From: Sumerlaeia bacterium
GTDB lineage: Bacteria > Sumerlaeota > Sumerlaeia > SLMS01 > JAHLLQ01
DNA length: 36,207 nt
Direction of reading: 5' to 3'
NCBI GenBank assembly: GCA_040219255.1
Contig: JAVJSW010000070.1
Location: forward strand, 1 to 36,207
Of this stretch, positions 3,801-36,207 are shown piece by piece. The position numbers and the translations under genes are program-made. Each line of letters starts with the position of its first letter. Within the stretch, counting starts at the first letter, position 1. The notes under the pieces were generated by a model. It was not told the DNA's origin, ran no database searches, and worked only from the letters and a program-made list of their open reading frames with translations.

Positions 3801-4261
3801 GCGCGCGGGTGCGGCTGGCGGTGCGCGACGAGGGGGACGACGACATCCTGGCCGGGCCGTGGATCGATGTGGACTTCACGGGCTGGCGCCAGATCGTCTG
3901 GGAGAATGTGCGCGCGAATCCGGGCAACGAAGTCTTCTTCCAGGCCGCGGGCGGCGACGGCGCCATTTCCGGCGCCACCGTCCGGATCGACAGCATTCAA
4001 GTGCAGAAGGGATCGGCGGGGGCGCAAAGCCTCCTGGTCTTCGACGAGATGACGATCCTGCCCGATTCGGAAGTCTCCACCGACGCGGCCGCCGTGGCTT
4101 GGCGCGACCCGGCCAGCGGCGCCGCCGGCGTCGTGATGGGCTTTCCCTTCGAAACGATTGTGGACGAGGGCGGCCGCGAGGACGTGATGGCGCGGGTTCT
4201 GGGCTTCCTGGACCTGGCGGGAACGCCCGGCAACGATGGCTCGGCCTGGATGCTCTACTGA
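860..4261 (+). CDS. Secreted multidomain N-acetylmuramoyl-L-alanine amidase (Amidase_3 with inserted golvesin/Xly CBD-like domain, FN3, C-terminal domain with CBM-like insert)
   Basis: GTG start and signal peptide. Zn/catalytic motifs SPGHG, VVED, SWHSN and LVETVFHDN. ADAVRFGGG golvesin-type motif, FN3 (VAWNAP...GYRVYRS...VAATNSGGES), GFPFETI. Ends GSAWMLY. Confidence 0.85.
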   Translation: MPKANPFSKFPSLRSLALALCLGAPAALPAHAPDLRSWDALAAQLSAGKTADAKSATADLKAILDAQLAPLSAVEKTARQETFFPAGTSLAFSRVDAAGRGEAYLVLPDAFLGGGATDFWFDQAEFMRHGIAELVEGLETLEFYARAESADDFRPLHEFLPAAPEGTARDKPAVPEAALKVLVPQGARGNAQPQGALSGASIFVSPGHGWFYDSSNARWQTQRFNSGDGTGVVEDHSNAEIINQYLLPYLWNAGARVYTIRERDMNTEMVIVDTPAAQLTGNWTTNATGGWNNGSYLSATTVAGNPTATARFTPTIPSDGYYGVYVHYRPAPNDGNTVRDGRIQIHHTGGTTLWTQDMTRDGYTWKYVGTYYFEAGSDPAAGSVEVTNQSATAGQIVTADAVRFGGGMGDWVDGGSVSGYPRFEESGLYYAQFMGKTGESGTVGVLPRYAAWECETEWEGGANNNAIYLSWHSNGFNTTVRGFETFAYGSGSFEGVAGGDVLRDRVHDKMVRVIQQFDPAIPNRGKKLNRLGEISPNSNDEMPAALVETVFHDNQADSDALLTPEFRQLVARAAYQGIVDFFHDYYFQSRGNSEFNDRTYLPEPPTHLSVTAAPGGAVRVAWNAPPSGGVLGAAATGYRVYRSRNGYGFDNGTAVTGTSFEFTPETSASKLYLRVAATNSGGESLPTETLGIGPLNLGTPQILVVNGFDRLDRGQNIRVPATFYPGNITQRGLLNRMNTFSYAVEHGEAIAAAGFGFASASNEAVASGAVSLGGYDAVVWISGEESTADDTFNAAEQSAMIAYLGAGGKVFVSGAEVAYDLVAQNNGAAFFRNSLRTDFSRDDAGTYAAKGSAGGIFDGVSLLFDNGSAVYDVDFPDVLAPSGAQSEGVLFYDAASPTIINDFDTLGGWRDPNFSGSTDAGVSDDSTFTIVNNPRRQGTGAGELAIVWGTGAFVRNFNGDATNPFSPDIDVSYWVNGDASGARVRLAVRDEGDDDILAGPWIDVDFTGWRQIVWENVRANPGNEVFFQAAGGDGAISGATVRIDSIQVQKGSAGAQSLLVFDEMTILPDSEVSTDAAAVAWRDPASGAAGVVMGFPFETIVDEGGREDVMARVLGFLDLAGTPGNDGSAWMLY

Positions 4262-7845: not shown

Positions 7846-9381
7846 TCATGGTCTTTCTTTCGGTTTCGGGCCCGTCTCTTCGCCGCGGTTGGCGGTGGCG
7901 AGGGCCTGGCGCAACCGTTCGCGGCTGAGGGTATTGACCGAGCCGAGTTCCGTCAGGTCGTCAGCGAGCGGCAGCAGCAACTCGAAGGTCGTGCGCTTTT
8001 TGTCGCTGCTCGCGAGGCGCAACTCGCCCTGATGGGCGCGCACGATTTCCCGCGCCAGGCTCAGGCCCAGGCCAACGCCCTCGCGCTTGCGGCTGCGTGA
8101 CTTGTCAGCGCGATAGAAGCGCTCGAAAATCTGCGACTTGTCTTCCTGCGAAATCACCTTCCCCGTGTTTGAAACCCGCAGGCAGGCGTGCGCGCCCTGG
8201 CGGCGCAGATCGAACCAGACGGACCCTTTCTCGCGGTTGTACTTGATGGCGTTCGAGGCCAGATTGTGCAGCACCTGGCCCATAAGCCCGCGGTCCGCCT
8301 CGATAAAGAGCGAACTCTCGATTTCGACCTGGCAGGTCAGATCCGGCGCCAGAATCTCCATGTCCTCGCAGAGGCTGGCGACCATCTCGGCGAGATCGAG
8401 CCGCTCGGTCTGCAGCGGCATCCGCCCCGAGTCCGACAGGCTGAGCAGCAGCAACTTCTCGGTGATGCTGCGCAGGCGCGAGATTTCATCGAGCAGTTCG
8501 CTGTAGCGTTGCTGATCCGGCGACTCCGGTTCGCTGGCCAGGATCGCCTGCTCCAGCTTACCCTGCAAGATCGTCAGCGGCGTCTTGAGTTCGTGGGCGG
8601 CGTCGGCGGTAAAGCGGCGGGCATCTTTGAAGCTGGCTTCCAGGCGATCCATCATGGCGTTGAAGATCTCGATGGTGCCGGCGAATTCCACGTCCACCTC
8701 GTGCTCTTCGAGGCGTTCTTCCAGGCCCGCCGCCGAAACCCGCGCCAGAGTCTCCGCCACCTCGCGCACGGGCCGCAGCGCCCGGTGCATCAGCAAAGCG
8801 GCCAGCCACGCCCCCGCCAGCATAACCACGGGAAAAATCAGCGCGAAGCGCCCCACCAGCGCCCAAAGCTCTTGCTTCACGGGTTCGAGCGGCGCCGCCA
8901 CCGCCAGCGTCACCCGTTCGTTGCGCGCGATCAGCACGCGCCATTCCCCGCCCTCCGCCGCCCTCGTCTCGTAGAAAAAGGCGCTGACCGGAAGGCTTTC
9001 GTCTTCGCCCAGGTCCGGCGGCGTGGGGTCCAGCGGCAGTTCCGGCGCGGCGTCGAAAAGGACCTGGGGGTCGAGGGCCACCGGCCAGTTGGGGCTGGCG
9101 TGGCTCCGGCCGCCGCGGTCTTCCATCCGGGCCGCCACCGCCACGGGCGTGTCGGCCTCGCTGGCCTCCCACCGCGCCCGCAGGAAAAACCACAGGTTCG
9201 GCGGCGCCTTGGAAGGCACCCGCAGCGTCTGATGCGCCGTCCCCGCCAGTAGCGCGTCCGTCTGGCGAAGAGCGCTGGCATACCACGCCACCGCCCCCAT
9301 GATCCCGGCCAGGAGCAGGACGAAGCCGGCGGTCAAGAACGTCAGCAACGCAACGCGAAGGCGCACGGACCGCAGCTTCAT
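7846..9381 (-). CDS. Two-component sensor histidine kinase (CusS/CzcS-like; 2 TM, HAMP, HisKA, HATPase)
   Basis: ATG at 9381 overlaps the response-regulator stop (ATGA). H-box FTADAAHELKTPL, N-box NLASNAIKYN, IFERFYRAD, GVGLGLSLAREIV. Confidence 0.93.
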   Translation of the reverse strand: MKLRSVRLRVALLTFLTAGFVLLLAGIMGAVAWYASALRQTDALLAGTAHQTLRVPSKAPPNLWFFLRARWEASEADTPVAVAARMEDRGGRSHASPNWPVALDPQVLFDAAPELPLDPTPPDLGEDESLPVSAFFYETRAAEGGEWRVLIARNERVTLAVAAPLEPVKQELWALVGRFALIFPVVMLAGAWLAALLMHRALRPVREVAETLARVSAAGLEERLEEHEVDVEFAGTIEIFNAMMDRLEASFKDARRFTADAAHELKTPLTILQGKLEQAILASEPESPDQQRYSELLDEISRLRSITEKLLLLSLSDSGRMPLQTERLDLAEMVASLCEDMEILAPDLTCQVEIESSLFIEADRGLMGQVLHNLASNAIKYNREKGSVWFDLRRQGAHACLRVSNTGKVISQEDKSQIFERFYRADKSRSRKREGVGLGLSLAREIVRAHQGELRLASSDKKRTTFELLLPLADDLTELGSVNTLSRERLRQALATANRGEETGPKPKERP

Positions 9382-10067
9382 TCGCCGGTGGAAGCCTCTC
9401 GCGGGCGGAGCCGATAGCCGACGCCACGGACCGTTTCGATCATCGAGGTCTTGCGTTCTCCCGGCAGCTTGGCCCGAATCCGCTGGATGTACACGTCCAC
9501 GATGTTGGTCTTCGGATCGAAGTAATAGCCCCACACGTGCTCGAGGATTTGGGTTCGCGTGTACACCCGGCCGGGCGTGCGCGAGAGATACTCGAGCAGA
9601 TTGAACTCGCGCGGGGTGAAGGTCAGCTCCTCCTCCCCGGCGTGGATGGTGCGGTTCATCAGGTTCATGGTGACGCCACCGAGATGCCGCACGCTGGTTT
9701 TCTCGCCCGTCTGACGGCGCTGGACGGCCCGCAGGCGCGCAATCAGTTCCTCGACGTAGAACGGCTTGGTCAGGTAATCGTCCGCCCCCAGGTCCAGCCC
9801 CTGAACCCGGTCGTCCAGCCCGGTCCGCGCCGTCAGCAGAATCACCGGCACCGTGTGCCCCTTCTGGCGCAATTCCTTGAGAATGCTGAGCCCATCGCGC
9901 CCCGGCACCATGATGTCGAGCACCAAGGCGTCGAACTCGGTGCTCAAGGCCATGTGCAGGCCGTCATCCCCGTCGGCACAGACTTCGGCAACAAAGCCTT
10001 GCTCCTCCAGGCCTTTGCGGACAAAGCTGGATATGCGGTCTTCGTCTTCGACGATGAGGATTCTCAT
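9378..10067 (-). CDS. OmpR-family response regulator (CusR/CzcR-like)
   Basis: MRILIVEDE, LDIMVPGRDG, GADDYLTKPF, winged helix TNIVDVYIQRIRAKL...ETVRGVGY. Confidence 0.95.
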   Translation of the reverse strand: MRILIVEDEDRISSFVRKGLEEQGFVAEVCADGDDGLHMALSTEFDALVLDIMVPGRDGLSILKELRQKGHTVPVILLTARTGLDDRVQGLDLGADDYLTKPFYVEELIARLRAVQRRQTGEKTSVRHLGGVTMNLMNRTIHAGEEELTFTPREFNLLEYLSRTPGRVYTRTQILEHVWGYYFDPKTNIVDVYIQRIRAKLPGERKTSMIETVRGVGYRLRPREASTGE

Positions 10068-10210: not shown

Positions 10211-10349
10211 TGCCGGTCCCGTTTATTTAGCGCAGTAATAATCCAATCTGTTCGCTGGCCGCGGAGAGTACCCTCCGCCCTCTCCAGTGCCGCCCCAGGT
10301 CCCAAGCCGGGCGGGGAACAGATTCCTAGCACAGAAAGGGGACCGGTTC

Positions 10350-12245
10350 ATGAATCCGAAGCGCCGCTCCTCCCACCCCCACCTCGAAATCTCCCGCGCG
10401 ATGCCCCACTCCCTTCGCCGATTCGTTCTGCCCACATTGGCCGCCGGGGCCCTGATGGTCTTCGCCTCGGCCGCCGATGCCCAACGCCCCCGCCGCGAAC
10501 CCAAGCCCGGTGGCCTGCCCCCCATGCACGATGTCCGCTCCATCGACGGCACCGGCAACAACGAAACCCACCCCGAATGGGGCGCCGCGGAAACGCCCTT
10601 CAAGCGCCTGACCCAGGCCGCCTACGAAGACGGCATCGGCGCGCCCTCCGGCAGCGATCGCCCCAGTGCCCGCGCCGTCAGCAACGCCCTCTGCGCCCAG
10701 CCCCAGTCCCTGCCCAACAGCACCGGCTACTCCGATTTCCTCTGGCAGTGGGGGCAATTCCTCGACCACGATATCACCGAAACGCCGGTCCTGGCGCCGC
10801 CGGAAAGCTTCAACATCCCCGTCCCCAGCGGCGATCCGTTCTTCGACCCCTTTGGCACCGGCATCGAAGAAATCGCCCTCAACCGCTCCTTCTTCGAGTT
10901 GATCGGCGGCGTCCGCGAGCAGTTCAACGCCATCACCGCCTACATCGACGCCTCGAACGTGTACGGCTCGGACGAAGACCGCGCCCGGGAGCTGCGCACT
11001 CTGGATGGCACCGGCAAGCTGAAGACCAGCGCCGGCGGCCTTCTGCCCTACAACGTGAACGGCTTCGCCAACGCGCCGACCTCCTTCGACCCGACCTTCT
11101 TCCTGGCCGGCGACGTGCGCGCCAACGAGCAAATCGGCCTGACCGCCATGCACACCCTCTTTGTCCGCGAGCACAACTCCTGGGCCGAGCGCATCGCCAA
11201 GCTCGACCGAATGCAGCGCACCACGCCCATGCGCCGCGGCCCCGGCATGGACGGCATCGCCCCCGGCGACCCACGCGGCGAACCCATGACGGACGACGAA
11301 ATCTACGAAATGGCTCGCGCCATCGTCTCGGCGGAAATGCAGGTCATCACCTTCCGCGAATTCCTGCCCGTCCTTCTCGGTCCCGGCGCCATCCCGCCCT
11401 ACACGGGCTATAACCCGAACCTCGACCCCAGTATCTCCAACGTCTTCGCCGCCGCCGCCTTCCGCCTCGGCCACACCATGTTGTCGCCGACGATGATGCG
11501 TGTCGATGCGGCCGGCCAGGAAATCCCCGAGGGCCACATCGCCCTAGCGGACGCCTTCTTCACCCCCGCGGAAATCGAAGCCACCGGTATCGAGCCCGTC
11601 CTGCGGGGCCTCGCGGCCCAGCGCGCCCAGGAATTCGACGCCAAGCTGATCGGCGACGTGCGCAATTTCCTCTTCGGTCCCCCCGGAGCCGGCGGCTTCG
11701 ATCTCGCCGCCCTGAACATGCAGCGCGGCCGCGATCATGGCCTGCCCAGCTACAACCAGGTCCGCGCCGATTTCGGCCTCACGCCCGTCGCCTCCTTCGC
11801 CGGCATTTCCTCCGATCCGGCCGTTGAGGCCAAACTCGCCAGCGTCTACACCAGCCCCGATCAGGTGGACCCGTGGGTCGGCATGCTGTGCGAAGACCGC
11901 GTGCCCGGCGCCCTCGTGGGCGAGACTCTCTTCACCATCCTGACCGAGCAGTTCACCGCCCTGCGCGACGGCGACCGCTATTGGTACCAGCGCCAACTGC
12001 CCCGCGAGCTGCGCGACATGGTCGAGAAAACCCGTCTCTCTCACATCATCCGCCGCAACACCACCATTGGCCATGAAATCCCCGACGACGTCTTCAAAGT
12101 CCGCCCCGAAGGCGGCACGCCGCCTCCGCCCCCGCCCGGCCCCGGCGATCCCACGGCCACACCCACCGCTCCTCCGCCGCCTCCCGGCCCCGGTGGGCCC
12201 CGCCCCGGCGAGCGTGGCGTGATCCGGGTGAAGACGGACCGGTAG
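10350..12245 (+). CDS. Secreted animal-type heme peroxidase (peroxidase-cyclooxygenase superfamily)
   Basis: RSIDGTGNN, distal WGQFLDHD, TAYIDASNVYG, GDVRANEQ, FVREHN, proximal AFRLGH, NMQRGRDHG, LRDGDRYWY. RR-containing signal and Pro-rich tail. Start is 10350 (AAAGGGG SD) or 10401. Confidence 0.92.
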   Translation: MNPKRRSSHPHLEISRAMPHSLRRFVLPTLAAGALMVFASAADAQRPRREPKPGGLPPMHDVRSIDGTGNNETHPEWGAAETPFKRLTQAAYEDGIGAPSGSDRPSARAVSNALCAQPQSLPNSTGYSDFLWQWGQFLDHDITETPVLAPPESFNIPVPSGDPFFDPFGTGIEEIALNRSFFELIGGVREQFNAITAYIDASNVYGSDEDRARELRTLDGTGKLKTSAGGLLPYNVNGFANAPTSFDPTFFLAGDVRANEQIGLTAMHTLFVREHNSWAERIAKLDRMQRTTPMRRGPGMDGIAPGDPRGEPMTDDEIYEMARAIVSAEMQVITFREFLPVLLGPGAIPPYTGYNPNLDPSISNVFAAAAFRLGHTMLSPTMMRVDAAGQEIPEGHIALADAFFTPAEIEATGIEPVLRGLAAQRAQEFDAKLIGDVRNFLFGPPGAGGFDLAALNMQRGRDHGLPSYNQVRADFGLTPVASFAGISSDPAVEAKLASVYTSPDQVDPWVGMLCEDRVPGALVGETLFTILTEQFTALRDGDRYWYQRQLPRELRDMVEKTRLSHIIRRNTTIGHEIPDDVFKVRPEGGTPPPPPPGPGDPTATPTAPPPPPGPGGPRPGERGVIRVKTDR

Positions 12246-22776: not shown

Positions 22777-23823
22777 CTAGATCTTGCGGCGGTAGAGCAC
22801 TTCTTCGGCGACACCTTCGAAGCGGTTACGCATTTTGGTGAAGGTGAAGTGTTCGCGGACGTAGGCTTGGCCTTCGGCGCCGACGGTTCTCGCTTCCTCC
22901 CAATCGAGGTCCTTGAGGAAATCGAGCCACTTGTCGTGCCAGAGCAGATAGCCGGTCTTGCGGTGCTTGACCAATTCGGGGATGCCGCCGGCGGGCGAGG
23001 CCAGAACCGGCAGGCCCCGGGCCATGGCTTCCAGGCATACCGTCGGAATACCCTCGGCCTTGCTGGGCACGAGGAGCAGGTCCAGGCTTCTGAGGAGCGG
23101 ACCGGCCTCGACGTAGCCGGGGCAAAGGACGCCTTCCGCTTCCGCGGCGGCCTTGAGTTCGGGACCGATGTTGCCGGCGAAGACCAGGGTGCCCGGTTTG
23201 CCTAGGGCCTTCCAGGTGCGCATGGCGAAACGGTGGCCCTTCTTGGGGTGTCCGCTGGCCAGCATGCCGAAAACGGGCTTGGGCAGATCGGGCAGGAGCA
23301 CCGGTTCGTCGTCGGGGGGGATGTCGATGCCGTTGTAGATGACGTTGCAGTTGATTTCCATCGGCAGGGCGGCGCGGGAGTTGCTGACCCAACGCTTGAA
23401 ACGCCATTTGAGGACCTTGCGGATGAGGGCTTTTTTGCCTTCGAAATCCGTGATGCAGCGGATCGAGCCGATCAGTTCGGGGGGCTTCGAGGGGAAGGTC
23501 ATGGCGGCCACGATGTGGGCCCAGGCGCCATAGCAGAAGACGACTTTGGGTCTTTCGGCGCGCAGGGATCGCATGGCCCCGGGTAGACGGCGCCAGTTCA
23601 TGGGCCAGCCAAGCAGTTCCTCGAGCGAGCGATGATAGAAAGCGGGCACCGCCTCGCAGAGCTTCTGCACGTTGCGCTCGGTGCCGCCGCCGTCATGACG
23701 CACGGTCAGATGGAGCGACTTGGGCGTGTGGGAATTGGGCTGATCGGGCGGCAGAGAGGGGATGGTCACCTCTTTGGAAGACCGCGGTGCGTTGGCCGTC
23801 TGTTCGGGGGTGGGCGCAATCAT
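22777..23823 (-). CDS. Glycosyltransferase family 4 (GT-B)
   Basis: GGGTER, VIYNGID, HPKKGH, PSKAEGIPTVCLEAMARGLPVLASPAGGIPELV. Start uncertain. Confidence 0.88.
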   Translation of the reverse strand: MIAPTPEQTANAPRSSKEVTIPSLPPDQPNSHTPKSLHLTVRHDGGGTERNVQKLCEAVPAFYHRSLEELLGWPMNWRRLPGAMRSLRAERPKVVFCYGAWAHIVAAMTFPSKPPELIGSIRCITDFEGKKALIRKVLKWRFKRWVSNSRAALPMEINCNVIYNGIDIPPDDEPVLLPDLPKPVFGMLASGHPKKGHRFAMRTWKALGKPGTLVFAGNIGPELKAAAEAEGVLCPGYVEAGPLLRSLDLLLVPSKAEGIPTVCLEAMARGLPVLASPAGGIPELVKHRKTGYLLWHDKWLDFLKDLDWEEARTVGAEGQAYVREHFTFTKMRNRFEGVAEEVLYRRKI

Positions 23824-23867
23824 AACATCAGGAGCCAGTGAGGTCTCGGGCAAAATACTGTAATAAT

Positions 23868-25739
23868 TTAGACCAGGACCTGGTTTCGCCACAACTGAAA
23901 CACGAGCATGGACCACAATTGTCTTTCGCGATTGTAGGAGCCGGAGTCGTGTTCGGCCATCAGGCGCTGGGCCACATCGGCGTTCAAGAACCCGTCGCGG
24001 GCGAGGGCGTCGTGGGCCAAGGTGTCGTGGAGAAGGTCGCGAAGGGGCCCGCGGAACCAGTCGCGCAGGGGGACGGCGAAGCCTCGTTTGGGGCGCTCGA
24101 TCAATTCCCGGGGCACGTGCCGGAAGAGGATTTCGCGCAGCATGGCCTTGGGTTCGCGGGCGTTGCGCCATGCCGGGGGAAGCCCCATGGCCATTTCGGC
24201 AACGCGATAATCGAGCAAGGGAACGCGCATTTCGAGGCTGGCGCTCATGCTGGCGCGGTCGCCCTTCACCAGGATGTCGTCGGGCAGGTAGTGGCGAAGG
24301 TCGGCGTAGCCGGCGCGGGCGTCGAGCGAGGGGCCGGAGCGTTCGTTGGTGCCGCTGGCGTCGTCGTACAGCGCATGGAACGGATGGTCGTTGAAATCGT
24401 AGCGGTCGCCTCGGATTTGATTCGCCAATTCCGCATTCCAACCGATGAAGACGTGGCCGTACAGCTCCCGGTGGGTTCGATAGAGAAGGCCTCGGCCGAT
24501 GGTCTGATGCCGATAATTCGGCCTGTTGGCCAGCCAGGCGGCCACCTTGCGCCGGACTGCGCCGGGGACGAACTGCATTCGGGACTTAACCGTCAGGAGC
24601 CACTGATAGCGATCGTAACCGAGGAAGAGTTCATCGCCGCCATCGCCCGACAAAGCCACCGTCACATGATCGCGCGTCAGGCGAGAGAGCAGGACGGTGG
24701 GCAGAAAGGAGGCGTCGGCGAAAGGTTCGTCGCAGAGGGCGGGCATTTGCTCCACGAGCGGGAGGCAGTCCTCCGCGGTGGCGGTCAGTTCGTGATGCTC
24801 CGTGCCGAGGTGGCGAGCGACTTCGCGGGCGTGATCGGCTTCGTTGAAGTCCTTCTCGCGAAATCCGATGGTGAAGGTTTTGACGGGGCCGGAGGAGACC
24901 TTTTGCAGGAGCGCGGCGACGAGGGAGGAATCGATGCCGCCGCTCAGAAAGCAGCCGAGGGGAACGTCGCTCAGCGTGCGGGCGCGCACCGCGTCGGTCA
25001 GGAGTTCTTCGAGTTCCTCGACGGCCTCGGCGCGGTCGCGGGTGGGATGGGTGATGGCGGCAGGGGGCGTCGGCAGGGTCCACCATCGGCGGATGGCGAA
25101 CTCGCCGGTGGCGAAGTCGTATTCGAGGCGATGGCCCGGGGGCAGTTGACGCACGCCCGCGACGATGGTCTCGGGGTGGGGCACATAGTTGAAAAGAATG
25201 TAGTTGGAGAGGGCGTGCGAGTCGATGCCGCGGCGGACCCAGGGGAGTTTGAGGAGGGGTCGCAGCTCAGAGGCGAAGGCGAGGCGGCCTTCACTGGCGG
25301 TGTAGTAGAGGGGTTTGATTCCGAGGCGGTCGCGGTAGAGGTGGAGGCGTGCTTCAGCCGGGTCGTAGATCGCGAGGGCGAACATACCGTTGCACAGGGA
25401 GATGAACTCCGGGCCTTCGAATTCGAAGAGGCGCAGGAGGGTTTCCGTGTCGGTGGCGGAGCGCCAGGGGCAATCGGGAGAGATGCGCCGGCGCAGATCG
25501 CGATGGTTGTAGACCTCGCCGTTATAGACGGCGACGAGGCCCTTTTCCGGGAGGCTCATGGGTTGAGCCCCGCGCTCGCTCAGGTCGAGGATTGCCAGAC
25601 GGCGATGGGCCAGCGCGAGGCGTTCGTCGCGCCAGGCGCCGGTGGCGTCGGGCCCGCGATGCGCCAGGCAGGCGGTCATCTCGGCCAGGAGGTCCGGAGA
25701 GCATTCTTGTGGATGAGTGGTACCGACAATCCCGCACAT
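23868..25739 (-). CDS. asnB: Asparagine synthase (glutamine-hydrolysing) family amidotransferase
   Basis: MCGIVG N-terminal nucleophile, HRGPD, HRRLAILD, RDRLGIKPLYY, LSGGIDSS, LSGDGGDELFLGY, KRGFAVP. Confidence 0.95.
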   Translation of the reverse strand: MCGIVGTTHPQECSPDLLAEMTACLAHRGPDATGAWRDERLALAHRRLAILDLSERGAQPMSLPEKGLVAVYNGEVYNHRDLRRRISPDCPWRSATDTETLLRLFEFEGPEFISLCNGMFALAIYDPAEARLHLYRDRLGIKPLYYTASEGRLAFASELRPLLKLPWVRRGIDSHALSNYILFNYVPHPETIVAGVRQLPPGHRLEYDFATGEFAIRRWWTLPTPPAAITHPTRDRAEAVEELEELLTDAVRARTLSDVPLGCFLSGGIDSSLVAALLQKVSSGPVKTFTIGFREKDFNEADHAREVARHLGTEHHELTATAEDCLPLVEQMPALCDEPFADASFLPTVLLSRLTRDHVTVALSGDGGDELFLGYDRYQWLLTVKSRMQFVPGAVRRKVAAWLANRPNYRHQTIGRGLLYRTHRELYGHVFIGWNAELANQIRGDRYDFNDHPFHALYDDASGTNERSGPSLDARAGYADLRHYLPDDILVKGDRASMSASLEMRVPLLDYRVAEMAMGLPPAWRNAREPKAMLREILFRHVPRELIERPKRGFAVPLRDWFRGPLRDLLHDTLAHDALARDGFLNADVAQRLMAEHDSGSYNRERQLWSMLVFQLWRNQVLV

Positions 25740-28888: not shown

Positions 28889-29560
28889 TCGCCGCCTCCT
28901 TCGTCCGCGGAACAGAAGGGAGAGTTCGCGGCCCGGTCGGCAAGGGCTATCCCACCTAAACGGGTTTACCTGGCCTAATGCGCAGGTCCAAGTGCTTTGT
29001 CTTCAAGTTCGTCCCGGCCTGCCAACGCCCGGCGAATCTGGCGGCGCTCCCCCGTGTTCCTTCACGCCACACCGTATAGAAGAGCAAGTGACGTCGGAGG
29101 GCTGTGTTCTTGCTGCGTTGGCGAGTGGTGAGTCCCAGCATCGCAGAGAATTCCGATGGCGAATCGAGGTGGAACATGGCGGCGGCGCAGGCTCGCGGAG
29201 GAATTCGTTCCGGGTTTCCCGGCGGTGTTCCTCGATGCGGGAGTCTTTGCGGAGCCGCTATTTCGGCGCCTGAGTCGCCGAAAATCGGTCCCGCCGCCTG
29301 AAGGGGCGGCGGCATCGGGCTCCAGATCGCGGGGGCCATCCCCGAAGATGGTGCCCGGCCGGCTGCGGGACTATTCGCATTCACCGGGTGTTCTGGATAC
29401 GCCTTGCGCCGTCCTTGAAAAAGGCCGTCCGCACAGCGATTTTCGCCAGATAAACAATTGAAACAATCTTTTGACACTATCGGCCCTCTTTCGTTGGGCG
29501 GGCTCATCACCACCCCAGCGCGGGTGCCGAAAACATCCTTCCCCATGGAGATCATTACCA

Positions 29561-32740
<3,180 letters not shown>

Positions 32741-32792
32741 CCCGGGACTCCACCCCCACACCTCAAACTGTCGTTACGAAAGGACAAAATTC

Positions 32793-32948
32793 ATGATGGA
32801 AAACAAGGACCCGAAAACGGTGGATCTCGAGGCTGGCTCGAATGCGCCGGCCTACGAGACCCCGAGCATCGAAACCCGCGAAGCCGCGGACCTGAACAGC
32901 CTGCTGCTGGATGTGAACGCCTTCACCGGCGACCCATTCGAGCTGTAA
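32793..32948 (+). CDS. 51-aa acidic peptide with a RiPP-leader-like YxxP motif (MMENKDPKTVDLEAGSNAPAYETPSIETREAADLNSLLLDVNAFTGDPFEL)
   Basis: Translated by hand (absent from the ORF track). GAAAGGA SD at 32778-32784, GC3-biased codons, TAA at 32946-48, followed by a strong terminator. Confidence 0.8.
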   Translation: MMENKDPKTVDLEAGSNAPAYETPSIETREAADLNSLLLDVNAFTGDPFEL

Positions 32949-32971
32949 AGGCTTCGGCCTGACAGTCTGCG

Positions 32972-33018
32972 CGCCGCCCCGGGCCGTTTCGACGACGGCC
33001 CGGGGCGGCGTCTTTCTT
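32972..33018 (+). terminator. Rho-independent terminator
   Basis: Perfect 16-bp stem CGCCGCCCCGGGCCGT/ACGGCCCGGGGCGGCG followed by TCTTTCTT. Confidence 0.85.
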
Positions 33019-33285
33019 GGCCGCCAGATGGCTCACGCGATGGATACTTCCCGTTGGCGATTGGGAAAAGGAGTCTTAGGTGGAACTTCAAGTCCCGCAG
33101 CGACAAAGGTCTGTTTGTCAAAGATGGGACAAACACGATCTTATTTAGGTCTTTTGTTATTGACGAACCCGGGCCGCGTCGTGCGAGAAGTGGAGGCAAA
33201 ACCGTGATTGCCTGGATTTTGATCCATTTTCTCAGACTCAGGTCCATCCATATCAAGGAAAGGGCCGGAAGAGGTTGCAATCGCC

Positions 33286-36207
33286 ATGGCTGATCGAAGA
33301 GCTGCGAAATCACTGAAGGTTCGGCGTGGGAGGAGACTCGGGCGAAGCCGGGCCCTCCTGACGGGGAGTTTCCTGGTGGCGGGATGCCTGGCGGCGTCTG
33401 TGTCCGTGGCGCGCCCGTTGCCGTTCCTGCCGCCGGAGACCGTAACGGCCGCGTTGGCAGAGCCGCCTGTGATCGAGTTGGCGGATATGGACGGCGATGG
33501 GGCCCTGGACGCGATATCCCTGTCGCGGACGGAGAACCGCTGCGCGGTGTTCTTGAATACCAACGGTGACGGAACGGGCTGGACCGAGGTGCTCGTTGCC
33601 GATACGGGTCTGGCTGGGCCTGAGGAGGCGGTCGCCGTGGATATCGACGGCGACGGCGATCCGGATCTGGTGGTCGGTTCGCCGGGCAACGACCGGGTCG
33701 TCTTTTTCGAGAACCTGGGCGAGGCCCTCGCGTGGGCGCCGGGTGTCGTCATGCTGAACGGCCCGGATTCCCCGGTGGGCGTGGGAGCGGGCGATGTGGA
33801 CTGCGATGGGGATGTGGACGTAGTGGCCTCGGCGGAGGGCGCTGGCGAGATTTACTTTCTGGAGAACACGGCGGGCGATGGCTCGGCATGGAATGCCTGG
33901 CTGGCCGCCAGCGGTCTGACCGGCGCCCGGGCGGTGCAATTGGCCGATGTGGACCGGGATGGCGACTTGGATGTGGTGGCCGCCGGCCGCCTCAGTGGCG
34001 ACGTGGCCTGGTTCGAGAACATGGCGGGCGACGGTTCGGCGTGGGCGCCGGCCGCAATCATCGTTTCCGGTATCAACGATCCTTACGATTTGATCGTCGC
34101 GGACATGGACAAGGATGGCGACGTGGATGTAGCCGTCGCCAACCGCGACAGCACCTCCGTGGCGGACACGTGCGAAACCATCCCCGGCGATACGAGCCTC
34201 CAGACATCGCTCTTTTCGAAAGGCAACGTCTTCACCGTCGACGCGGCGGAAACGCTGACCGATTTCAGCATGGACCTGAATCTGAGAGGGGGCACCGTCG
34301 ACCTCTATTACTTTCTGCTGGCCGGCGATGCGCCTTTCGATCCCTTCACGGTGGTTTGGAGCGAGACCCGAAGCGAGACGGGGAGTGGGTTCCAGGCCTA
34401 CAGTGCCAACCTGCCGGATCAAATTCTCGACCCGTCGAAGTACTATGTCGCCGGGATTGGCTGGGCGCCGATGATCGATTACCGCCGGTCTTTCGGGACG
34501 GCTCCGCTCGCCTTCACGGACGTGGGGGGCACGGTGGTCAAAGGCTTCGAGGGCGTCGGTCCCGATCCTTTGTCCTTCGAGACGAACCCGATCGACGATA
34601 CCCACGCCATGGAACTCTGTTTCGCCGGTGCGAGCGCCTTGAACAACGAGAGTTTTCTGCTCTTCCGCAATCTCGACGGCGCCGGTGGAAGCTGGTCCCC
34701 TGGCACCACCGTGGCCGGCGGTCACCTCGGGGCTCAGAGTCTCGCGGCGCAGGACATCGACGGTGACGGCGATCTCGATCTGGCCGGCGTGGCTTTCACC
34801 GATGGCGACGCGCTCTGGTTCGAGAACGCGTCGGGCGACGCTTCCGCGTGGATGACTCATCCGATCAGCGATTCCCTCAGCCAACCGTCGGGCATCGCTC
34901 TCGGCGATATCGATGGCGACGGCGATGTGGACGCCGCCGCTTCGGAAGGCGCGGCCAATCGTCTCCATTGGTTCGAAAACGATCTGATCCACCGCAACGC
35001 GGCGTTCTGCGAGACGATTCCCATCAACAATCCCACCACCGCCTATTCCGTGGTGGCGGCGGATATCGATGGCGACGGCGATCTCGACGCGGTGAATTCC
35101 GGAGCCTACGCGGGCGGCGTGTTCTTCTCCGAGAACGTCTCCGGCGATGGTGGCACGTGGGCCACCACGACGATCGCCGGGCCGGGTCCTCAGCACGCCA
35201 AGACCGCCGCCGGCGATGTGGATGGTGACGGGGATCTGGATGTGGTGTCGGCCAGCTATTATGGCATGGACTGGCATGCCAACACGCTGGGCGATGGCTC
35301 GGCCTGGACAACGAACGTCATCGCGGTCAACGACAACTATCTGGATGTCGTCCTGGGCGACATGGATGGCGGGGCCGATGGGCTTTGCGCTTTGGATGTG
35401 GTGGCGGTTCGCCTGAACACCCTCGTCCTCTTCGACAACAGCAACGGCGATGGCACCTCCTGGACGGCTTCGACGGTCAGCAACACGCTCGGCTTCGCGC
35501 TTAGTGTCGATGCGGGGGATGTGGACGGCGACGGGGACCTGGACCTGGTCGTGGCCGACTTTGTCGGCAACCAGGTCTTGCTGTTCGAGAACAGCGCCGG
35601 GGACGCCTCCGTCTGGAATCAACGAACGGTGACCTCGGCCGAGAACAATCCCTTCGGCGTCGAACTGGCCGACATCGATGGCGACGGCGACCTGGATGTG
35701 GTGGCGGGTATTCGCAACAGCAACCAGGTTATCTGGTGCGAGAACACCGCCGGAGATGGCACGTCTTGGACTCGAGGGCTGATTGGCCTGGCCAATGGCG
35801 CCAACGAAGTGATCGCCCGGGACATCGACGGCGACGGAGATGTGGACGTGGCCTGCGCCGCCTTCGACGAGAACGCGGTCCGCGTTTTCATCAATCTGTT
35901 GGGCGATGGGTCGAGTTGGCAGTCCACCACCGTTACCACCAGCGCGACAAGCGCCATCGCAGTCGACCTGGCCGACGTCGACTGCGACGGAGATCTGGAC
36001 GTCCTCAGTGCGGCTCTTGGCTCCGACTCGGTTGACTGGCATCCGAACGTCGGCGGCCAGTTCATGCTCGAAACCGCCGGCGGCCCTGGCGGCGCGGTGG
36101 ATGATGGCGACATCACCCTCCTCTTCGACTTCAACGCCGTCCACAACGGCCGCCCCGGCGACGTGGATCAGGAAATCGAAGTCTTCAACGTCCTCTTCGA
36201 AGAAACC
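33286..36207 (+). CDS. Second FG-GAP double-propeller secreted protein, paralog of 29561-32740, 3'-truncated by the window end
   Basis: Not in the ORF track because it has no stop in the window. Frame reads open from ATG 33286 (MADRRAAKSLKV..GSFLVAGCLAASVSVARPLPFL) to VFNVLFEET at the edge. Shares ENDLIHRNAAFC and NVGGQF.LET..GPGGAVDDGDI with paralog 1. Confidence 0.9.
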   Translation, partial: MADRRAAKSLKVRRGRRLGRSRALLTGSFLVAGCLAASVSVARPLPFLPPETVTAALAEPPVIELADMDGDGALDAISLSRTENRCAVFLNTNGDGTGWTEVLVADTGLAGPEEAVAVDIDGDGDPDLVVGSPGNDRVVFFENLGEALAWAPGVVMLNGPDSPVGVGAGDVDCDGDVDVVASAEGAGEIYFLENTAGDGSAWNAWLAASGLTGARAVQLADVDRDGDLDVVAAGRLSGDVAWFENMAGDGSAWAPAAIIVSGINDPYDLIVADMDKDGDVDVAVANRDSTSVADTCETIPGDTSLQTSLFSKGNVFTVDAAETLTDFSMDLNLRGGTVDLYYFLLAGDAPFDPFTVVWSETRSETGSGFQAYSANLPDQILDPSKYYVAGIGWAPMIDYRRSFGTAPLAFTDVGGTVVKGFEGVGPDPLSFETNPIDDTHAMELCFAGASALNNESFLLFRNLDGAGGSWSPGTTVAGGHLGAQSLAAQDIDGDGDLDLAGVAFTDGDALWFENASGDASAWMTHPISDSLSQPSGIALGDIDGDGDVDAAASEGAANRLHWFENDLIHRNAAFCETIPINNPTTAYSVVAADIDGDGDLDAVNSGAYAGGVFFSENVSGDGGTWATTTIAGPGPQHAKTAAGDVDGDGDLDVVSASYYGMDWHANTLGDGSAWTTNVIAVNDNYLDVVLGDMDGGADGLCALDVVAVRLNTLVLFDNSNGDGTSWTASTVSNTLGFALSVDAGDVDGDGDLDLVVADFVGNQVLLFENSAGDASVWNQRTVTSAENNPFGVELADIDGDGDLDVVAGIRNSNQVIWCENTAGDGTSWTRGLIGLANGANEVIARDIDGDGDVDVACAAFDENAVRVFINLLGDGSSWQSTTVTTSATSAIAVDLADVDCDGDLDVLSAALGSDSVDWHPNVGGQFMLETAGGPGGAVDDGDITLLFDFNAVHNGRPGDVDQEIEVFNVLFEET

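Follow-up and report, generated by a model that had tools for sequence, protein, structure and literature searches.

A RiPP precursor is usually taken for the first stage of a secreted natural product, and its gene normally lies next to those for its enzymes. Lasso peptides have as hallmarks a Thr at position −2 and a core with D/E at position 7–9 and, beyond it, a tail of threading length, whilst the mycofactocin precursor MftA ends in a C-terminal Val-Tyr. In the type IX secretion system (T9SS) of Bacteroidota, the C25-family peptidase PorU acts in the C-terminal-domain sorting step, and anionic LPS has an acceptor-type role; we know of no ribosomal precursor peptide with tailoring enzymes in the T9SS neighborhood.

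Linear polyphosphorylated peptides (LPPs) are encoded by lppA-K-B-S-D-N of Paenibacillus alginolyticus (Popov et al., Nat Commun 2026, PMC13381572). According to the sections of that paper available to us, RRE binding in this pathway requires YxxP, an HprK-like kinase polyphosphorylates core residue 3, and a signal-peptidase-like peptidase cleaves only with the RRE (PMC13381572). The same sections state that LPPs are restricted to Bacillota, and the Discussion calls the biological role of the pathway type unknown (PMC13381572).

A peptide gene behind a surface-protein gene

The window, a 36,207-nt stretch that is an entire contig (C70) of a Sumerlaeia bacterium, carries on its plus strand a gene for an FG-GAP repeat surface protein (paralog 1, 29471..32740 as an ORF from TTG 29471; the ATG at 29561, giving MTKKLKS..., is the likelier start). 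This protein matched PF13517 FG-GAP_3 (E = 3.5e-71, 14 stretches) and PF01839 (E = 3.4e-25) in Pfam. By eye, its N-terminus has a signal peptide and a possible lipobox, LVAGC, and its C-terminus is a domain of ~115–125 residues (CTD, 32360..32737, plus strand) delimited by profile A2 and the predicted fold. A second FG-GAP gene, paralog 2 (33286..36207, plus strand, from ORF and Pfam), is cut by the contig end; its CTD lies on another contig, probably with a further peptide copy. The FG-GAP proteins also gave sub-threshold Pfam matches to TcdB_toxin_midN (15–18 bits against a cut-off of 24.8).

The TAA stop of paralog 1 ends at 32740 and a small ORF starts at 32793, so that the intergenic gap is 52 nt (32741–32792). 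Within it lies a ribosome-binding region, GAAAGGA with an 8-nt spacer (32778..32792, plus strand), in which AAGGA occupies 32780–32784, 8 nt upstream of the ATG. The ORF, designated a precursor-peptide gene from its reading frame, its copies, selection and a profile (32793..32948, plus strand, stop included), encodes the 51-aa peptide MMENKDPKTVDLEAGSNAPAYETPSIETREAADLNSLLLDVNAFTGDPFEL, which lacks Cys and carries AYETPSIETRE at residues 20–30. Hairpin searching and folding located an intrinsic terminator common to the FG-GAP gene and the peptide gene (32971..33018, plus strand): positions 32971–33011 form an 18-bp stem with 15 GC pairs, followed by CTTTCTT, with a folding energy of −53.6 kcal/mol (z = −5.8; 0/200 shuffles folded equally well). 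No second strong terminator-like site was found on the plus strand across 32400–33400, and none within 32740–32793. An earlier note on this DNA had described a 51-aa ORF with a strong SD, starting 52 nt past the FG-GAP stop and free of Cys in its C-terminal part, the AYETPSIETRE stretch and no terminator before the peptide end, and all of this was borne out. So was its remark that no RRE, peptidase, cyclase or radical SAM gene adjoins the peptide, as Pfam analysis of the 34 window ORFs found no PqqD, radical SAM, lasso B2 or C25 gene. The window's Asn synthase (23868–25739, minus strand) is AsnB-type, with GATase domains and the N-terminus MCGIVG. The peptide itself matched no Pfam or NCBIfam family at E ≤ 1.

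Five copies of the peptide were found in the genome (E = 2e-29 to 5e-6), a sixth match at E = 1.28 being excluded from the count. All three copies with visible upstream DNA start 43–58 nt after the stop of a CTD gene, and contigs C55, C40 and C80 begin within a CTD or a peptide copy. Start, SD and stop are intact in all full copies; by eye, SD-like AAGGA or GGAG precedes the C55 and C30 copies, and equivalent hairpins follow those on C40, C55 and C30. Across the last 32 codons pN/pS was 0.17–0.32, and over the last 13 codons, counted by eye, the C70 and C30 copies show 6 synonymous and 0 non-synonymous differences. On this sequence evidence the peptide ORF is a real gene, its five copies being under purifying selection. 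The copies may descend from one duplication-prone FG-GAP-peptide unit and therefore count as one event. Two of the five are called as genes in a large protein collection, and a word-indexed search of 5.8 billion proteins matched only these two.

The precursor family and its gene cluster

A single-sequence search of 60 relatives gave weak matches only, and a profile was required. The ORF and its YxxP motif, whose conservation in homologous loci the earlier note had proposed to check, proved conserved: besides the five copies, profile A1 matched in 15/73 genomes of the class (8/10 in family f1, 6/11 in f2, 0/51 in the other 14 families). A phylum-level profile search of 75 genomes added nothing. 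HMMER on 1.84 billion representatives returned 70 matches at E ≤ 1e-3; all but three of these, 67 in number, are peptides 45–95 aa long. On metagenome contigs none of 89 pattern matches with profile A5, and none of 42 with profile A7, was confirmed. With profile A7, genome contigs gave one weak Bacteroidales locus (L069, E = 3e-4).

Y21 and P24 are invariant in all 22 aligned peptides. Counted from this Tyr, the 67 family peptides all have Pro at +3 and I/V/L at +5; the Y-to-A spacing is fixed at 22 residues, with Ala at +22 in 64/67 and Asn at +21 in 46/67, and Cys occupies +23 in 54/67, where Phe is found only in the copies of this genome. Leader residues are the best-kept part family-wide. 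The core has a median of 8 residues and is 12 residues or shorter in 45/67, so that the short core, remarked on in the earlier note, is the family norm and no oddity. I-[LIV]-[TS]-H-S is retained in the canonical Sumerlaeota precursors, which often carry Ser as the third core residue; in the window peptide the H-S of the [TS]-H-S part of the leader is missing, and the peptide's closest relatives are a Cys-less NAATG group with the conserved core NAATGFIPSP. Two Cys-less NAATG relatives come from JGI contig(s) of 68.5 kb, and one from a 36-kb JGI contig.

Residues 21–26, YETPSI (32853..32870, plus strand), fit YxxPx[IV] in the alignment and form a putative RRE-binding motif, a role assigned by analogy with LPP and lasso leaders as presented in the available sections of PMC13381572. 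The fixed Y-to-A spacing delimits a putative leader of residues 1–43 ending V-N-A (32793..32921, plus strand), and family column statistics a putative 8-residue core, FTGDPFEL (32922..32945, plus strand). Signal peptidase I follows the −3/−1 rule, and on this basis the cut was placed after A43, the presumed cleavage site; Thr45 is a candidate phosphorylation site. A cut after A43 leaves one residue past E7, in agreement with the earlier observation that the peptide is too short for a lasso ring.

In related Sumerlaeota the precursor lies inside a cluster comprising a C25 (PorU-like) peptidase, a signal-peptidase-I/PqqD fusion or PqqD, an HprK-like kinase, a PF14907 nucleotidyltransferase (NTase) and a PqqD-radical-SAM/SPASM enzyme (Pfam and NCBIfam on G002/G007 and on C37), and tblastn with the C37 cluster proteins found the order C25-PqqD-peptide-HprK-like-NTase in most of 26 peptide loci. 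In the present genome this cluster is on C37 and the signal-peptidase-PqqD fusion on C42, both unlinked to the ORF, which fits the earlier suggestion of enzymes encoded in trans; the genome search for PqqD/RRE (PF05402) proposed alongside it found four domains above the Pfam cut-off, on C13, C42 and C37 (two). The C37 PqqD scored 41.4 bits, and the C13 PqqD matched lasso_PqqD_Bac best (60 bits against a cut-off of 80).

On C37 a 65-aa canonical Cys-containing precursor lies between the PqqD and the kinase, and the genome has just one gene each for an HprK-like protein, an NTase of the C37 type and a PqqD-radical SAM. The kinase (365 aa, P-loop GDSGAGKTT) reached 30 bits against a cut-off of 200 for TIGR04352 HprK_rel_A, and its position beside the precursor is conserved in relatives; the NTase (472 aa) scored 67.7 bits for PF14907 (cut-off 31.2). 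The C42 fusion (245 aa) scored 39.3 bits for the archaeal signal peptidase I model TIGR02228 (cut-off 51.85), 23.4 for PF00717 (cut-off 23.3) and, in its PqqD part, 35.3 for PqqD_rel_X (cut-off 35), and it is orthologous to the in-cluster fusions of relatives (tblastn, down to 1.6e-30). The C25 peptidase scored 138 bits (cut-off 23), with His/Cys motifs that align to gingipain R; it has a signal peptide, and the precursor peptide has none. The best NCBIfam match of the radical SAM enzyme was TIGR03962 (mycofactocin), at 154 bits under the 265-bit cut-off.

Among solved structures the RRE profile was closest to TbiB1 (1e-8), TfuB1 (8.5e-5), LppB 9x8z (8e-4) and PbaB1 (8e-3), that is, YxxP/WxxP-binding B1 proteins. 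The assignment of the YxxP stretch to the leader type bound by PqqD-type RREs stands, as the peptide is homologous to precursors beside PqqD genes in relatives. The co-folding that had been proposed with each RRE was run with the C37 PqqD and gave an ipSAE of 0.44 (median of 3 runs) against 0.01 for the best of 3 controls; the mark was reached by 116/157 solved complexes and 2/215 mismatches, and values of ≤0.60 comprise just 18/157 solved complexes yet both passing mismatches. The runs shared at least 79% of contacts, with a partner pLDDT of at least 53. Solved RRE-leader complexes exist, so the pass may reflect memorization, and the model lends weak support to binding of the peptide by the C37 PqqD.

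Judged against the available sections of PMC13381572, the family resembles LPPs in its small precursor with an N-terminal YxxPx[V/I] motif and variable C-terminus; its discrete PqqD-type RRE, here encoded in trans; its candidate HprK-like kinase and its PF14907-type NTP transferase, without a lasso cyclase at the loci scanned; its putative archaeal-type signal-peptidase-I leader peptidase, which would partner with the RRE and is fused to it here; and its location near polysaccharide and envelope genes. On the same basis, the LPP consensus is YxxPxVLxHQxIxFETxxS, cut after T-1 and with Ser3 in the core, whereas the window peptide reads YETPSIETREAADLNSLLLDVNAFTG, without L-x-H-Q and F-E-T, and its putative cut lies 23 residues from Y, against 16 in LPPs. 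The Sumerlaeota clusters add the PqqD-radical-SAM/SPASM enzyme and the secreted C25 peptidase; no exporter, MsbA-like or other, was seen among the C37 neighbors scanned, and an ABC-2 permease lies ~7 kb off. Those sections of PMC13381572 make no mention of orphan precursors that follow surface-protein genes. With the phosphorylated and phosphoglycosylated lasso peptides treated there (paeninodin-like, Bsf subfamily) the family shares a YxxP/WxxP leader bound by a B1-type PqqD, and a candidate HprK-like kinase and nucleotidyltransferase as tailoring enzymes; it differs in having no B2 peptidase or macrolactam cyclase at the scanned loci and a core too short to thread, and a lasso identity was rejected on these grounds. 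By its sequences, the precursor family is a relative of the LPP family and not a lasso family, and the peptide, once placed outside standard RiPP classes, is thus kin to a family published in 2026.

The mycofactocin system MftA/MftB/MftC offers a parallel in its PqqD-dependent radical-SAM/SPASM maturase, and the [VT]-x-Y-like tails in which 16/67 family peptides end, the C37 canonical precursor included, recall MftA. The window peptide, however, has no C-terminal Tyr, and the radical SAM orthologue is present also where precursors end right after CTSFIP. Action of this enzyme on C-terminal Tyr tails only was considered and rejected, its orthologue occurring in 19/25 order genomes, including clusters with precursors ending CTSF[IV]P.

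The C-terminal domain and the C25 peptidase

The CTD (PLLVELGDFEA...GFNVYR...YYLEDVDLSGKTTLHGP...VSNWAIFE) is predicted to fold as a seven-strand Ig/FN3-like sandwich (pLDDT 80.5). It had no match at E ≤ 1 in Pfam and NCBIfam, and a fold search returned generic Ig/FN3 matches only (TM ~0.4–0.5), with no specific relative. Profile A2 gave 98 matches in 21/25 genomes of the order, ten of them in this genome, where the peptide lies directly behind 3/10 CTD genes and 7/10 have none. The scan of relatives showed that the placement behind the PLxVEL...GFNVYR...YYLEDVD...HGP domain, as first noticed in the window, recurs in two other genera (G021:C3 and G020:C106). At both loci the module is reduced to C25, CTD protein, peptide and NTase, the G021:C3 NTase directly following the peptide (PF14907, 85.3 bits). 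CTD proteins ahead of the peptide in these relatives have SdrD_B repeats or no Pfam domain; FG-GAP repeats were accordingly rejected as the partner, and where the earlier note had named the FG-GAP protein the common element is the CTD. Independent support for the CTD-peptide pairing is two further genera only.

In G000:C37, G016:C21, G018:C53 and G020:C25 no more than 12 kb separates CTD genes from precursor or C25 loci, and C25 genes abut CTD genes in genomes without a peptide match too (G003:C312, G008:C62 and C140, G022:C151, G018:C9). G003 and G008 have CTD, C25 and radical SAM genes and no detectable peptide; together with the seven peptide-less CTD genes here, this indicates that the CTD system does not strictly need the peptide. 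The likeness to the T9SS consists of a C25 peptidase that is large, secreted and alignable with gingipain over the His/Cys dyad, and of C25 genes that cluster with varied secreted proteins ending in one Ig-like CTD of ~100 residues. The C37 peptidase, however, scored 85.4 bits against a cut-off of 420 for the PorU model NF033707, and the CTD does not match Por_Secre_tail / TIGR04183 (E ≤ 1); the comparison covered the peptidase and the CTD. A further difference is the presence here of a ribosomal precursor and its tailoring enzymes among the neighboring genes. Among the papers listed by literature searches, none joined peptidase C25 with PqqD/RiPP, and none Sumerlaeota with RiPP, radical SAM or lasso. 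The gene arrangements hint that the modified peptide may work together with CTD surface proteins.

Proposed role of the peptide

We read the ORF, with a probability of roughly 0.6, as a functional precursor gene of an uncharacterised Sumerlaeota RiPP family related to LPPs and phosphorylated lasso peptides, the product of which would be RRE-docked, tailored, cleaved and act with CTD proteins. The FG-GAP gene and the peptide gene would be co-transcribed, and Y21, P24 and I26 of the leader would dock on a PqqD-type RRE. Decoration of the core, most likely at Thr45, would fall to the HprK-like kinase and the nucleotidyltransferase, and the archaeal-type signal-peptidase-RRE fusion would cut after V41-N42-A43, freeing the modified core FTGDPFEL. 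Where the family has Cys this peptide has Phe, so any radical-SAM step directed at Cys is probably bypassed or changed. In concert with CTD proteins and the C25 peptidase, which is secreted and PorU-like, the product would then display or anchor surface proteins. As the peptide lacks both the Cys at +23 and the H-S, the C37/C42 enzymes may not accept it; RREs discriminate closely similar leaders, according to the available sections of PMC13381572.

Two other functions could be proposed for a real gene at this position. The peptide might be a leader-only regulator or decoy that binds an RRE or enzyme without being matured and tunes or activates the pathway with surface-protein expression, for example by RRE titration or as a leader in trans; the family-wide conservation of leader residues, the missing Cys of the usual core and the ties of the copies to surface-protein genes rather than enzyme genes would fit. 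Its core LDVNAFTGDPFEL, however, is the strictest-conserved stretch among paralogs (0 non-synonymous versus 6 synonymous differences), which would not be expected if the leader alone mattered, whilst cores of 4–12 residues are normal for in-cluster precursors (45/67) and the related Cys-less group keeps a conserved core of its own, NAATGFIPSP; we consider this function unlikely. It is also unlikely that the small acidic peptide acts unmodified, for example by assisting the CTD as a chaperone or in secretion, or by inhibiting the PorU-like peptidase or mimicking its substrate. The tight operon-like position behind CTD genes in three genera and the reduced modules of G021:C3 and G020:C106 speak for such a partner, but CTD proteins and C25 are exported and the peptide, by eye, has no signal peptide, its conserved residues are those of RRE-dependent leaders, and an NTase of RiPP-tailoring type still adjoins it in relatives.

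That the ORF is decaying or spurious, riding on a duplicated FG-GAP 3′ end, would explain why all copies are in a duplicated gene family, three of them at contig starts, and why only two of five are called as genes; purifying selection, the intact start, SD and stop of the full copies, profile matches (E = 1e-18 to 1e-22) to a family present in 14 further genomes and the same arrangement with non-FG-GAP proteins in other genera make it very improbable. A lasso class with B2 and C genes elsewhere is hardly tenable: it would account for the YxxPxI leader, the lasso B1 proteins among the best relatives of the RRE profile and the C13 PqqD match, but no B2 transglutaminase-like peptidase or cyclase was found at any peptide or PqqD locus scanned, the window Asn synthase is AsnB-type, the core from F1 to E7 leaves a 1-residue tail that cannot thread, and Thr is absent at −2, where Asn stands if the cut is after A43.

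Within the reading as a functional RiPP precursor, a doubtful but specific role would be that of acceptor or linker in PorU-like sorting, the secreted C25 transpeptidase joining the N-terminal amine of the core, freed by loss of the leader, to the new C-terminus of the surface protein after CTD removal. If this were true, the joined moiety would be a core bearing phosphate or sugar (FTGDPFEL in this genome, CTSFIP in most relatives), a decorated ribosomal peptide would fill the role of anionic LPS in type IX secretion, and the orphan precursor genes would supply stoichiometric, cargo-specific anchors.

In this genome a precursor family related to LPP and lasso precursors appears to have spawned orphan copies wired to surface-protein genes, and the clusters of the pathway include a PorU-like peptidase, the genes for which are found grouped with that CTD as well. 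The gene set thus identified is small and concrete and could be tested in E. coli. Should the link prove functional, it would supply a biological role for a type of pathway that the only experimental paper (PMC13381572, Discussion) describes as having no known one, and it would point to surface-protein sorting or anchoring outside Bacteroidota that involves a ribosomal peptide.

The precursor ORF and its copies

The 51-aa ORF (32793-32948, forward strand; MMENKDPKTVDLEAGSNAPAYETPSIETREAADLNSLLLDVNAFTGDPFEL) starts 52 nt after the TAA of the 1089-codon FG-GAP ORF, with an AAGGA ribosome site 8 nt 5' of its ATG. A pattern scan of 32400-33400 found no terminator-like site between the FG-GAP gene and the 51-aa ORF, and placed a strong terminator behind the latter (32971-33011, forward strand; 18-bp stem with 15 GC pairs, then CTTTCTT). 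This hairpin folds at -53.6 kcal/mol (z -5.8), and 0 of 200 shuffles folded equally well. The ORF reading and the scan confirmed the ORF, its Shine-Dalgarno site, the 52-nt gap and the terminator only behind the peptide, all as described in the earlier note. Long open frames antisense to the FG-GAP genes (29579-31069, 31415-32032 and 33310-36144, reverse strand; up to 944 codons) were rejected as genes: repeats and high G+C produce such artefacts, which can mislead gene picking by longest ORF. Further upstream the window encodes a 1133-aa protein with a Golvesin C-terminal domain and an N-acetylmuramoyl-L-alanine amidase domain (860-4261, forward), and a 652-aa animal haem peroxidase (10287-12245, forward; full-length PF03098 match, E 8e-155) adjoined by a two-component system (7846-10067, reverse).

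The assembly comprises 83 contigs (5.35 Mb, 63.6% G+C), the window being the entire contig C70, and holds five copies of the peptide: C70, C55 (401-550), C30 (54507-54653, reverse strand), C40 and C80, the last two cut by contig starts. A sixth match was dropped (E 1.28). For all three copies with visible upstream DNA, the gene in front carries the Ig-like C-terminal domain (CTD) of the FG-GAP protein at its end, and the distance from that gene's stop to the peptide start is 52, 58 or 43 nt; by eye an SD-like motif precedes and a hairpin follows each copy. Over the last 32 codons pN/pS was 0.17 between C70 and C55 and 0.27–0.32 against C30, and in the last 13 codons (LDVNAFTGDPFEL) C70 and C30 differ by six synonymous and no non-synonymous changes (counted by eye), indicating from codon comparison that selection acts on the peptide as a protein, most strongly on its C-terminal part.

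A peptide family and its trans-encoded enzymes

The peptide had no match among Pfam or NCBIfam families, and among 5.8 billion proteins a word-indexed search retrieved nothing beyond the two copies called in this genome itself. Six-frame searching of 60 relatives yielded weak matches in two genomes of one genus; these were 66-aa peptides (...AYE[AP]PRILTHSA.DLDGM.LHVNACTS...SVVY) whose genes stand immediately between those for PqqD and a P-loop protein. By Pfam, these loci encode a C25 peptidase, an S24/S26-like peptidase with PqqD, the peptide, the P-loop protein, a PF14907 nucleotidyltransferase (NTase) and a PqqD-radical-SAM/SPASM enzyme. A profile of seven peptides (A1) matched 15 of 73 genomes of the class (8/10 in family f1, 6/11 in f2 and 0/51 in the other 14 families), so that the conservation in relatives that the earlier note proposed to look for is present; a phylum-wide search of 75 genomes gave no further peptide matches. 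Most of 26 peptide loci, searched by tblastn with proteins of the cluster on contig C37, have the order C25-PqqD-peptide-kinase-NTase.

An alignment of 22 sequences (A3) had no indels from the motif Tyr to the N-A 22 residues on. Searched with HMMER against 1.84 billion representative proteins, it gave 70 matches at E<=1e-3, 67 of them peptides of 45–95 aa. P0010 (1137 aa), P0061 (765 aa) and P0069 (736 aa) are long repetitive proteins with 5–10 profile-matching stretches each, and were left out as probable low-complexity matches. With the window's own peptide (P0001) this made 68 small peptides, 67 of which carry the motif, the exception being a truncated gene call of the C37 precursor. Counting from the Tyr, these 67 have Pro at +3 (67/67), Asn at +21 (46), Ala at +22 (64) and Cys at +23 (54); the stretch after +22 has a median of 8 residues (<=12 in 45/67), and 16 peptides end in Tyr.

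The enzymes that the earlier note had placed in trans were found elsewhere in the genome, its proposed search recovering four PqqD-type leader-binding (RRE) domains, none in the window. The C37 cluster (reverse strand) encodes a GT2 glycosyltransferase, a C25 peptidase of 944 aa (PF01364, 138 bits) that begins with a signal peptide, a 128-aa PqqD, a 65-aa precursor (MENKTNHTNEQYEAPKILTHSMEGMEDVSMEVNACTGGFPL...EVFY), a 365-aa P-loop, kinase-like protein (HprK_rel_A, a weak match of 30 bits against a cut-off of 200), a PF14907 NTase (67.7 bits), a 472-aa PqqD-radical-SAM/SPASM enzyme (best models mycofactocin maturase, 154 bits, and StsB, 141 bits, both under cut-off) and a TPR protein; a GT2 gene lies near the precursor/C25 locus at L028:17609-18388. 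The kinase-like gene and the C37-type NTase and radical-SAM genes occur once each in the genome. The C25 enzyme retains the His and Cys motifs of gingipain and scores below the PorU cut-off (NF033707, 85 bits vs 420). A peptidase-PqqD fusion on C42 (240560-241294), a type found inside precursor clusters in relatives, matches archaeal-type signal peptidase I weakly in its N-terminal half (TIGR02228, 39.3 bits; cut-off 51.85), as well as SipW weakly, and passes the PqqD_rel_X cut-off in its C-terminal half (35.3 vs 35). C13 carries a further PqqD-PF14907 pair (L068:6263-7700, reverse; lasso_PqqD_Bac 60 bits, cut-off 80; PF14907 162 bits), possibly a separate RRE-dependent system, with two proteins of unknown family encoded upstream of it and no recognised precursor.

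Relation to known systems and a Cys-less subtype

Among solved structures, the RRE profile matched lasso B1 proteins and LppB best, the latter from linear polyphosphorylated peptides (LPP). Popov et al. (Nat Commun 2026; PMC13381572) describe LPPs as confined to Bacillota, with precursors reading YxxPxVLxHQxIxFETxxS and variable C-termini; Y and P are required for RRE binding, the peptidase cleaves only together with the RRE, the kinase attaches multiple phosphates to Ser3 of the core, the NTase stayed silent in the host used, and the biological role is given as unknown. The Sumerlaeota family has the YxxPx[IV] motif and a similar enzyme set in common with LPP, its kinase and signal peptidase being candidates from weak model matches. 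Its canonical precursors continue with [LIV]-x-H-[S] behind the motif, as LPP precursors do, and many have Ser at core position 3. The family differs in the distance from Tyr to putative cut (23 residues vs 16), in an extra radical-SAM enzyme and C25 peptidase, and in the peptidase-RRE fusion.

Signal peptidase I prefers small residues at -3/-1, and the V-N-A before the core would fit such a cut. A lasso peptide was rejected, in agreement with the earlier note, as B2 peptidase and cyclase were absent from every locus scanned and the core is too short for threading. The window's asparagine synthase (N-terminus MCGIVG) was likewise rejected as a lasso cyclase, being AsnB-type; together with the adjacent GT1 glycosyltransferase it looks like an envelope-polysaccharide pair (22777-25739, reverse).

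The window's peptide has Phe at the position that holds Cys in 54/67 members, and reads ETRE where most members read [IV]-[TS]-H-S. Compared over the 26 residues that start at Tyr, its eight closest non-self relatives (12–14 identities; median 9.5 over 66) include seven that are Cys-less and end ...VNAATGFIPSP or similar, several of which also read I-E-T-[RHV]; by this resemblance we therefore assign it to a Cys-less subtype found beyond its genome. An orthologue of the radical-SAM enzyme is present in 19 of the order's 25 genomes, also in clusters with precursors ending CTSF[IV]P. This makes the conserved N-A-C-T-S-F region a likelier target than the Tyr tails, so that Cys-less peptides probably skip or change this step. 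Two extra precursor loci directly beside dxs, G004:C58 (L048/L058; core STSDEVPL) and G009:C254 (L049/L059; core CSSFDPIGD), are each accompanied by a separate set of kinase-like and NTase genes, with C25, PqqD and radical-SAM genes all absent from view. The G004 locus, the second Cys-less one (NASTSDEVPL), fits a scheme in which the kinase and NTase steps are those that count for Cys-less cores.

The C-terminal domain, the C25 peptidase and a proposed route

The CTD is the last ~115–125 residues of the FG-GAP protein (32360-32737). It has no Pfam or NCBIfam model, is predicted as a seven-strand Ig/FN3-like sandwich (pLDDT 80.5), and gave only generic matches in a structure search. Of 25 genomes of the order, 21 hold matches to its profile (A2), 98 in all, which cap varied secreted proteins in open frames of ~80 to 2,400 codons. 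Ten lie in the genome under study, and related places include L056, L057, L060 and this genome's contigs C76, C39, C49, C37, C60, C26 and C42. The domain ends ...[HY]GP...V-x-[DNEQ]-W-x-x-x, and orthologous C25 peptidases have a similar tail behind an FGDPA motif (e.g. ...LPDWDSWE), which may be a common sorting signal.

The earlier note had paired the peptide with the secreted, PLxVEL-domain FG-GAP protein. The pairing with a surface protein held, as the CTD-then-precursor order recurs in G021 and G020, but the partner is the tail domain rather than FG-GAP. The three CTD genes followed by the peptide in this genome (3/10) are all FG-GAP paralogues. G021:C3 has a divergent C25 gene, a 1676-aa SdrD_B-repeat protein ending in the CTD, a precursor (...VNACTSFIP) ~130 nt on, and an NTase; G020:C106 has C25, a 654-aa CTD protein, a precursor ~70 nt on, a second CTD protein and an NTase; and G020:C25 has C25, precursor, NTase and two CTD proteins. 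CTD genes also lie 5–12 kb from the precursor clusters of G000:C37 (this genome), G016:C21 and G018:C53. At ~2–11 CTD genes per 3–5 Mb genome such proximity is far beyond chance, by an informal judgement over related genomes. C25 genes stand beside CTD-protein genes at G003:C312, G008:C62, G008:C140, G022:C151 and G018:C9, and orthologous ones abut CTD genes in G003, G008 and G022, genomes without a detected precursor, so the C25-CTD pairing seems independent of the peptide. In two genera, genes for cohesin-domain proteins are found no more than a few kb from the precursor/C25 loci (L028:4093-5589 on G000:C37; L056:12857-14617 on G021:C3), and a Wzy_C O-antigen-ligase-like gene lies near the latter (L056:16871-18322).

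We propose that the ORF would be a working precursor, transcribed together with the surface-protein gene, whose YETPSI would be recognised by one of the genome's RREs. The kinase and NTase would decorate the core, the precursor would be cleaved behind Ala43, and the small product would act at the envelope with CTD proteins and the C25 peptidase. The co-fold suggested in the earlier note put the C37 PqqD with the window's peptide above the best of three controls (ipSAE 0.44 vs 0.01) but supports binding weakly: by the tool's calibration, most passes of this kind are wrong where the interaction was not already likely, and solved RRE-leader complexes could explain it through memory of the model. 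Against this route, leader positions that may determine which RRE binds have diverged, most CTD genes (7/10 in this genome) have no peptide behind them, and no exporter was seen among the C37 neighbours scanned for a peptide that would have to reach secreted partners. The five copies in this genome may be one evolutionary event. The boldest reading, an unlikely one, would have the C25 enzyme perform a sortase-like reaction for which the matured peptide is the acceptor.

The homology, selection, trans-encoded enzyme set and recurrent gene order are established. On sequence grounds we regard the ORF as genuine and conserved, an orphan precursor from a Sumerlaeota branch, so far undescribed, of LPP/lasso-related RRE-dependent peptides; by gene order it is coupled to a new CTD and, via the clusters, to a PorU-like peptidase; it is this coupling that makes the finding interesting.
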